The position numbers were made by a program, and so were the translations under genes. The notes under the pieces were generated by a model. That model ran no database searches, was not told where the DNA came from, and saw nothing but the letters and a program-made list of their open reading frames with translations. This document shows positions 9,117 to 9,555 of a stretch of 11,676 nucleotides of DNA, one piece after another; within the stretch, counting starts at the first letter, position 1; each line of letters opens with the position of its first letter. Origin of the DNA: a virus (Duplodnaviria; Heunggongvirae; Uroviricota; Caudoviricetes); IMG/VR virus record IMGVR_UViG_2740892258_000014; one strand, given 5' to 3'.

Positions 9117-9527
9117 ATGAAACAAATGTCACTAATTGAGATGGATGGTTTTCTGAAAGGTAAATGCATCCCAAGTGATTTAAAGGTTAACGAAACAAAC
9201 GCTGAATACCTTGTCCGTAAGTTCGGTGAACTTGAATCAAAACTGGAAACGGCGTTGCGGGAGTGTAGTTCTGCTGGAATCACGATTGATAACCTTGAGG
9301 CTAAATGCGCGAAGATGGCTGCTGAAAATACCTCACTTAAGCAATCTGAGAAGGAATTTAATGACTTTTGTCGTGAGGAGTTTAGCGAATGGGAAGATGA
9401 TGTTACTGAAACCCCAGCCACCGATGCTTTTCTGGCTGAAGTGCGGGCGCAGGGGGTGGATGCTGCTATAGAAGCTGCAAAAAATCTGGTGGCCCAAGAC
9501 GGGCGCAGGGGGTGGATGCTGCTATAG
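9117..9527 (+). CDS. Ea22/Eaa-like early-left hypothetical protein, frameshifted by a 56-bp tandem duplication (intact reading frame would run to 9691)
   Basis: Likely start ATG 9117 (track start is GTG 9099). Removing one copy of the duplication (9444-9499 or 9500-9555) gives a continuous ORF ending at TGA 9689-9691, which overlaps the next gene's GTG start. Confidence 0.5.
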   Translation: MKQMSLIEMDGFLKGKCIPSDLKVNETNAEYLVRKFGELESKLETALRECSSAGITIDNLEAKCAKMAAENTSLKQSEKEFNDFCREEFSEWEDDVTETPATDAFLAEVRAQGVDAAIEAAKNLVAQDGRRGWMLL

Positions 9528-9555
9528 AAGCTGCAAAAAATCTGGTGGCCCAAGA
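9444..9555. repeat. Perfect tandem duplication, 2 x 56 bp
   Basis: CGGGCGCAGGGGGTGGATGCTGCTATAGAAGCTGCAAAAAATCTGGTGGCCCAAGA occurs at 9444-9499 and again at 9500-9555 with no mismatch. Confidence 0.9.

Follow-up and report, generated by a model that had tools for sequence, protein, structure and literature searches.

Two 56-bp tandem duplications in a CUS-3-like prophage contig of Escherichia coli K1 A192PP are almost certainly untrimmed assembly overlaps at the ends of a repeat shared by two prophages

Introduction

In a stretch of viral DNA of 11,676 nt, hereafter the window, the reading frame that begins with the ATG at 9117 runs into a 56-bp segment that is repeated in tandem and stops within its second copy. 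Was this gene truncated by an event in the history of the phage, is its frame switched on and off, or was the repeat made during assembly? An earlier note on this DNA had left all three explanations standing: a very recent duplication, a reversible on/off switch operated by slipped recombination, and an assembly artefact.

The window is found verbatim as bases 3-11678 of CVOH01000124.1 (34,801 bp; GCA_001245225.1), a contig of the short-read draft genome of E. coli K1 strain A192PP, for which the GenBank accession is NZ_CVOH00000000.1 (PMC5054322). It belongs to a CUS-3-like, P22-type (Lederbergvirus) prophage of ST95 E. coli that is integrated beside dsdC, and spans the early-left and replication region of that prophage. 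The parent strain, A192, belongs to ST95, is close to IHE3034, and was sequenced, by the laboratory responsible for A192PP, with MiSeq 2x151 reads from Nextera XT libraries and assembled with Velvet and VelvetOptimiser; A192PP differs from it by four SNPs, and DELLY reported no structural variants when A192PP reads were mapped on the A192 draft (PMC5115809).

Results

The deposited contig carries two perfect duplications of equal length

Positions 9444-9499 and 9500-9555 are identical (TRF period 56, 2.0 copies, 100% matches, score 224), which confirms the perfect 56-bp tandem duplication described in the earlier note; a perfect adjacent repeat of 56 nt cannot have arisen by chance. About 1.5 kb downstream lies a second perfect 56-bp tandem duplication, absent from that note, which TRF places at 11003-11117 on the plus strand as two copies of 56 nt plus 3 nt (TCC). 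Because of this 3-nt phase ambiguity, its units can equally be written as 11006-11061 and 11062-11117. The novel junctions read ...GGCCCAAGA/CGGGCGCAG... at 9499/9500 and ...CACACATCC/AGCCGCAGA... at 11061/11062 (11058/11059 in the TRF phase).

At the boundaries of the first duplication, position 9443 is G, as against A for the last base of the unit, and 9556 is A, as against C for its first base; microhomology there is hence 0 nt, and the short flanking match looked for as a sign of slippage is absent. The second duplication has 3 nt of boundary microhomology (TCC). In the part of the A192PP assembly that we inspected for duplications (~21 kb), both of those in this contig are exactly 56 nt long, and the next 9.5 kb of unique chromosome in CVOH01000124.1 hold no further 56-nt duplication. 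Two perfect duplications of identical length suggest a length set by a parameter, such as the overlap in a de Bruijn graph.

Related genomes hold one copy at both sites

For comparison we took the complete E. coli genomes in which 80% or more of 9000-11676 is covered (n=115), together with phages CUS-3 and phiv205-1. All 115 genomes and both phages are single-copy at both sites, since they align with this segment over 2,565 nt and not 2,677 nt. Junction sequences were likewise missing elsewhere: 44-mers centred on each novel junction had no match in 5,426 complete E. coli genomes, and 30-/31-mers across the junctions had no exact match in species-representative genomes, IMG/VR or JGI metagenomes, with the wild-type junction, as a positive control, present in more than 119 viral contigs. 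Among ~15 billion proteins, an exact-sequence look-up found the two aberrant products of the duplicated genes (136 and 100 aa), each on CVOH01000124.1 only.

That the junctions are absent from every DNA collection scanned by pattern would also be expected had the duplications been introduced into the analysed sequence and stood in no public record. Both aberrant products are, however, on CVOH01000124.1, and the public contig contains the window verbatim, which excludes such an introduction; to this reading we accord practically no probability.

With both extra copies removed, the window measures 11,564 nt and is colinear, with no indels, with N21, UTI89 and phage CUS-3, from which it differs by 10, 13 and 13 substitutions, respectively. 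The proposal that one copy is the ancestral or normal state is thus borne out by the other genomes, all of them single-copy, and by a junction sequence seen nowhere else; judged from these comparisons, the single-copy state is most likely the true, ancestral one.

The two genes are restored when one copy is removed

As deposited, the hkaH homologue (9117-9527, plus strand) is apparently truncated to 136 aa, its translation giving 127 native residues followed by DGRRGWMLL and a stop codon at 9525-9527. Removal of one copy restores an ORF of 172 aa that ends at 9691, with its TGA overlapping the GTG of the next gene (GTGA, 9688-9691); both the premature stop and the coupled arrangement had been correctly described in the earlier note. 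The single-copy allele of UTI89 encodes a 172-aa protein, and in the references the CDSs of hkaH and the next gene overlap by 4 nt. Moreover, the de-duplicated ORF is identical to hkaH of CUS-3 (ECRS218_0057) and to WP_000812193.1, annotated as hypothetical. The second duplication lies in an ASCH-domain gene (10838-11140, plus strand), apparently frameshifted and of 100 aa in the contig, for which the true gene encodes 94 aa (WP_000002106.1). On the sequence evidence, both genes, of 172 and 94 aa, are most likely intact in the real genome.

The next gene, a DUF7739 gene (9688-9987, plus strand; PF24881, E=1.2e-21), is the one whose GTG start overlaps the TGA of intact hkaH, and it is followed by an Ead_Ea22+DUF551 gene (9989-10561; Pfam Ead_Ea22 match, E=1.1e-29). 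The latter is an intact ORF in the window, a fusion of 190 aa, and GenBank gives the same for CUS-3 and phiv205-1; on the same DNA in UTI89, N21 and IHE3034, RefSeq annotates a partial ead/Ea22-like pseudogene and a separate small ORF.

The hkaH homologue matches PHROG 614 (unknown function), and PHROGs of unknown function are the only families matched by the hkaH and ASCH genes. NCBIfam had no family for hkaH or the ASCH-domain gene, and Pfam none for the intact hkaH or intact ASCH protein; the only Pfam match in that set was a sub-threshold one to DPC3 on the truncated 136-aa product. The description of the truncated gene as Ea22-like did not survive this analysis: at E<=0.01, Pfam Ead_Ea22 (PF13935) does not match the intact 172-aa protein, and BLASTP shows no similarity between this protein and the true Ead_Ea22+DUF551 product of 9989-10561. 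The C-terminal 63-aa module of hkaH does occur, likewise C-terminally, in RefSeq ead/Ea22-like proteins of other E. coli, so that the label is loosely understandable. There is an in-frame mosaic joint inside hkaH at 9443/9444, and the module from 9444 on is common to hkaH-like genes with unrelated N-termini and to ead/Ea22-like genes in E. coli prophages and plasmids.

Each duplicated unit is one end of a block shared by two prophages

We examined the block ends in IHE3034, the closest complete reference, standing in for A192PP. IHE3034 carries a second prophage at guaA, ~158 kb from its CUS-3 prophage (NC_017628.1, 2,885,000-2,921,500), and the position of the block in this genome was located by analogy with SF-468. 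The guaA prophage contains a block of 1,562 nt that is 100% identical to 9444-11005 of the de-duplicated window; identity extends 0 nt to either side, with mismatches at 9443 (G/A) and at de-duplicated 11006 (G/C), which is window position 11118. The unit of the first duplication is exactly the first 56 nt of this block, and that of the second (de-duplicated 10950-11005) exactly its last 56 nt.

As placed in the contig, the block occupies 9500-11061 (plus strand) and comprises the 3' end of hkaH, the DUF7739, Ead_Ea22+DUF551 and DUF4752 genes, and two-thirds of the ASCH gene, counted from its 5' end. Both IHE3034 prophages have WP_000215166.1 and WP_000253289.1 among their annotated proteins, and a metagenome scaffold (L138) is identical across the span of the block. 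The module in the guaA prophage runs, in order, through an hkaH-like gene with a different N-terminus, the DUF7739, ead/Ea22-like, DUF4752 and ASCH genes, and the small terminase gene. IHE3034, APEC O18 and SCU-116 each have one place matching 9300-9443 and two matching 9500-9643, and the ASCH segments that flank the second duplication match two to three places in ST95 genomes. A block that is 100% identical in two co-resident, otherwise unrelated prophages points, at the level of sequence, to recent exchange. The guaA prophage of IHE3034 also encodes an endosialidase tailspike, T7 gp14-like core proteins and a tRNA-Arg.

Two other ways of accounting for the unit edges were set aside. The second prophage of SF-468 (L151), tried as a model for the other block copy, shares only 9934-11056 with the window and has internal mismatches. 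A SNP-bubble model, in which each unit follows a polymorphic site and both vertices are in-branches, was considered along with the variation among relatives (73 of 125 depart from the window at 9443, and 8 of 33 at de-duplicated 10946); it was dropped for the second site because the unit there can be written to end at 11005, before the first mismatch at 11006, and is then an out-branch. It is also where this first mismatch with the second block copy falls that gives the second duplication its 3-nt TCC. End-points of BLAST alignments at 120 fetched loci did not pile up at the unit edges; an isolated mismatch does not stop a BLAST alignment.

A de Bruijn graph with k=57 reproduces the window

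The de-duplicated window and the guaA-prophage copy of IHE3034 were entered in a de Bruijn graph with k=57. Along the path of the window this graph branches at exactly two vertices, 9444-9499 and 10950-11005, and the three unitigs that result (9,499 + 1,562 + 615 nt), concatenated untrimmed, give the 11,676-nt window base for base; at k=55 or k=59 the duplications would be 54 or 58 nt long. The simulation hence explains the number of duplications, their length of 56 nt, their positions and their absence from the adjacent unique chromosome.

The course of events that we propose is as follows. The strain lineage would carry two prophages, the CUS-3-like one at dsdC and a second at guaA, which have a block of 1,562 bp in common without a single difference. 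From the two copies a de Bruijn-graph assembler would make a single, collapsed repeat unitig, with an overlap of k-1 nucleotides to the unique flank on either side, and the left flank, repeat unitig and right flank would then have been joined end to end with the 56-nt overlaps kept (k = 57). Untrimmed overlaps of this kind leave the first (9444-9499) and last (11006-11061) 56 nt of the block each twice in tandem, where the real genome would have one copy at each site. On the plus strand, copy 1 of the first unit (9444-9499), the first 56 nt of the repeat block, would thus close the left unique unitig (window 1-9499) at its 3' end, and copy 2 (9500-9555), the extra and almost certainly artefactual one, would open the repeat unitig at its 5' end. 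Contigs from the guaA-prophage flanks would be expected to end with A+CGGGCGCAGG...CCCAAGA or to begin with AGCCGCAG...CACATCC+C.

Several links in this chain are our reconstruction. We infer that A192PP carries the guaA-prophage copy from IHE3034 as its closest reference and from a branch seen in a Logan contig (below), that k was 57 in the A192PP assembly, and that the unitigs were concatenated at some point during or after assembly. Velvet, by analogy with the parent strain, is the probable assembler; to our knowledge, it does not normally leave overlaps untrimmed within a contig. Apparently the repeat unitig was used once only, in the CUS-3 path, and the artefact proteins predicted for the guaA-prophage locus (137 and 100 aa) were not in the collection. 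Such a single placement is compatible with the proposed course of events without confirming it.

Branch points in read-derived contigs, and the case for real duplications

One Logan contig, assembled at k=31 from run ERR1442928 and present in 12 samples, has the R84H allele of Abc2 found in the window and ends at 9473, that is 9443+30, as k=31 predicts. This end indicates a graph branch vertex at 9444-9473 in real reads, and is also expected if the duplication is real. The equivalent of 9444 is also a frequent starting point: in 86 blocks of the collection, contigs open at position 1 with the gene of a 63-aa product starting there, and contigs that start there come from several assemblers (NCBI drafts, MEGAHIT k127, SPAdes, Logan). 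Contigs hence begin repeatedly at the 9443/9444 joint, a boundary between modules at which differing prophage sequences come together. A look-up of the 39-aa edge product expected of contigs that begin at the second boundary found nothing; so short a gene is perhaps never called.

Could both duplications nevertheless be real, having arisen recently in A192PP, for instance during laboratory passage, so as to truncate HkaH and frameshift the ASCH gene? The sequence does stand in the deposited record, perfect, unmutated copies are what a very recent event should leave, a real 56-nt duplication could be assembled correctly at k=57, and the end of the Logan contig at 9473 is also expected in a k=31 graph. 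Against this, two independent events of equal length would each have had to fall exactly on one end of the 1,562-bp block, a coincidence that we do not find credible, and the first would have occurred without the flanking microhomology normally needed for replication slippage. The absence of structural variants and the mere four SNPs between A192 and A192PP also speak against it, with DELLY being weak at such sizes. Moreover, the 54-aa contig-start product predicted for a real duplication was seen only in five unrelated metagenome or Logan contigs of <=1.4 kb, with coverage below 2x in all three for which it is given. Real duplications are accordingly very unlikely, and the very recent event suggested in the earlier note finds no favour in a copy number that is invariant elsewhere, a second duplication of equal length 1.5 kb away, and units that coincide with repeat-block ends.

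The same three observations tell against the suggested reversible on/off switch by slipped recombination, a phase-variation device by which gain or loss of a 56-bp copy would turn hkaH off and on. The unit is not a multiple of 3, so that the frame would indeed toggle, as the earlier note had argued, and CUS-3 has a phase-variable O-acetyltransferase elsewhere in its genome. Yet every other copy number, in thousands of related sequences, is one; the locus has neither an array nor a tract of short repeated units; a duplication of 56 nt is found in an unrelated gene as well; and the ends of the shared block account for both sites completely. We regard such a switch as next to inconceivable.

Other features of the window

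Eight clustered substitutions against CUS-3, UTI89 and N21 lie at window 55-79 (contig bases 57-81), in ninB. This ninB allele is a natural variant, common in other lambdoid prophages (951 records at >=99%), and its first difference, at contig base 57, falls at a number equal to the k deduced above; lying near the contig end, the stretch may be chimeric or come from collapsed paralogues, and not represent the true CUS-3 allele of A192PP. At 3048 and 8976 the window differs from N21, UTI89 and CUS-3 by two further substitutions, both nonsynonymous. The first gives H12Q in a 90-aa protein encoded at 2811-3083 on the minus strand, the second R84H in the anti-RecBCD protein Abc2 (8726-9022), a variant also present in other phage contexts.

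A gene at 6195-7164 has imperfect repeats rich in Glu, Ala and Lys (TRF 6664-6791; repeat families D1 and D3), and RefSeq lists it as a pseudogene, a 'cell envelope biogenesis protein TolA' with a frameshift. The window and all references alike have it as two ORFs, 6099-6545 and 6520-7164, so that this frameshift is not specific to the A192PP assembly. Inside the replication protein O gene, on the minus strand, 2253-2381 holds four copies of a ~12-nt periodic motif (copies: CATCATGTGCGG / TTGTTTGTGCGG / CTTCATGTGCG), which by their sequence resemble the iterons that form the origin in a lambdoid O gene. As to where the prophage ends, two records conflict, with the CUS-3 'attR core' (~11441-11456) upstream of a torI-like gene (11476-11676), and attR in the phiv205-1 record downstream of that gene (beyond 11676).

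Discussion

Both 56-bp duplications are, with very high probability, artefacts of the A192PP draft, namely untrimmed k-1 overlaps around a collapsed repeat, and not biological. Of the explanations first offered for the repeat, assembly error is the one now backed to the base, by the ends of the shared block and by the simulation. Were the duplications real after all, some process acting at the exact boundaries of the inter-prophage block would have made matched 56-nt duplications and knocked out two genes of the early-left operon, and a candidate for it would be the phage Erf/Abc2 system, through faulty resolution of recombination or gene conversion between the prophages; we consider this extremely unlikely. 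A target-site duplication left by a mobile element was also discarded, as no element is present; we know of no target-site duplications that come anywhere near 56 nt.

With untrimmed overlaps as the preferred explanation, the duplications have no biological significance, and hkaH and the ASCH gene of the CUS-3-like prophage are most likely intact. What they bear on is data quality. The public A192PP draft (CVOH01) has pseudo-duplications of a fixed length of 56 nt at repeat boundaries, and these create false frameshifts and two proteins found nowhere else in the public collection searched. The same error may sit in other CVOH01 contigs, or in similarly made assemblies, wherever prophage modules repeat. 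As a general diagnostic, perfect tandem duplications of equal length located exactly at the ends of intragenomic exact repeats indicate untrimmed unitig overlaps.

Among known systems, the affected gene is closest to hkaH of HK620 and CUS-3 (PHROG 614), a gene of the 'ea region' in the early-left operon of P22-like and lambdoid phages. After de-duplication it has the same length (172 aa), the same place between abc2 and the DUF7739 gene and the same GTGA coupling; in the deposited contig it differs in encoding 136 aa, a difference that is almost certainly artefactual. With Ead/Ea22-like proteins (PF13935) it shares a genomic neighbourhood and the C-terminal 63-aa module common to annotated members, but it differs in having neither an HMM match nor BLASTP similarity to the neighbouring true member. 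Contingency loci resemble the deposited arrangement in that a change in repeat copy number would shift the frame. Such loci have short units (typically 1-8 nt) in multi-copy tracts, the number of which varies between isolates, whereas here there is one extra 56-nt copy in one assembly only and no variation elsewhere. The likeness to contig-overlap artefacts of de Bruijn assemblers is disturbed in one respect, that the repeat unitig was seemingly used in the CUS-3 path only and not in that of the second prophage. In all others it holds: the source is a draft short-read genome, the length is equal at both sites (56 = k-1, for k=57), the units are the ends of a block exactly repeated in the closest reference, and the simulation reproduces the pattern.
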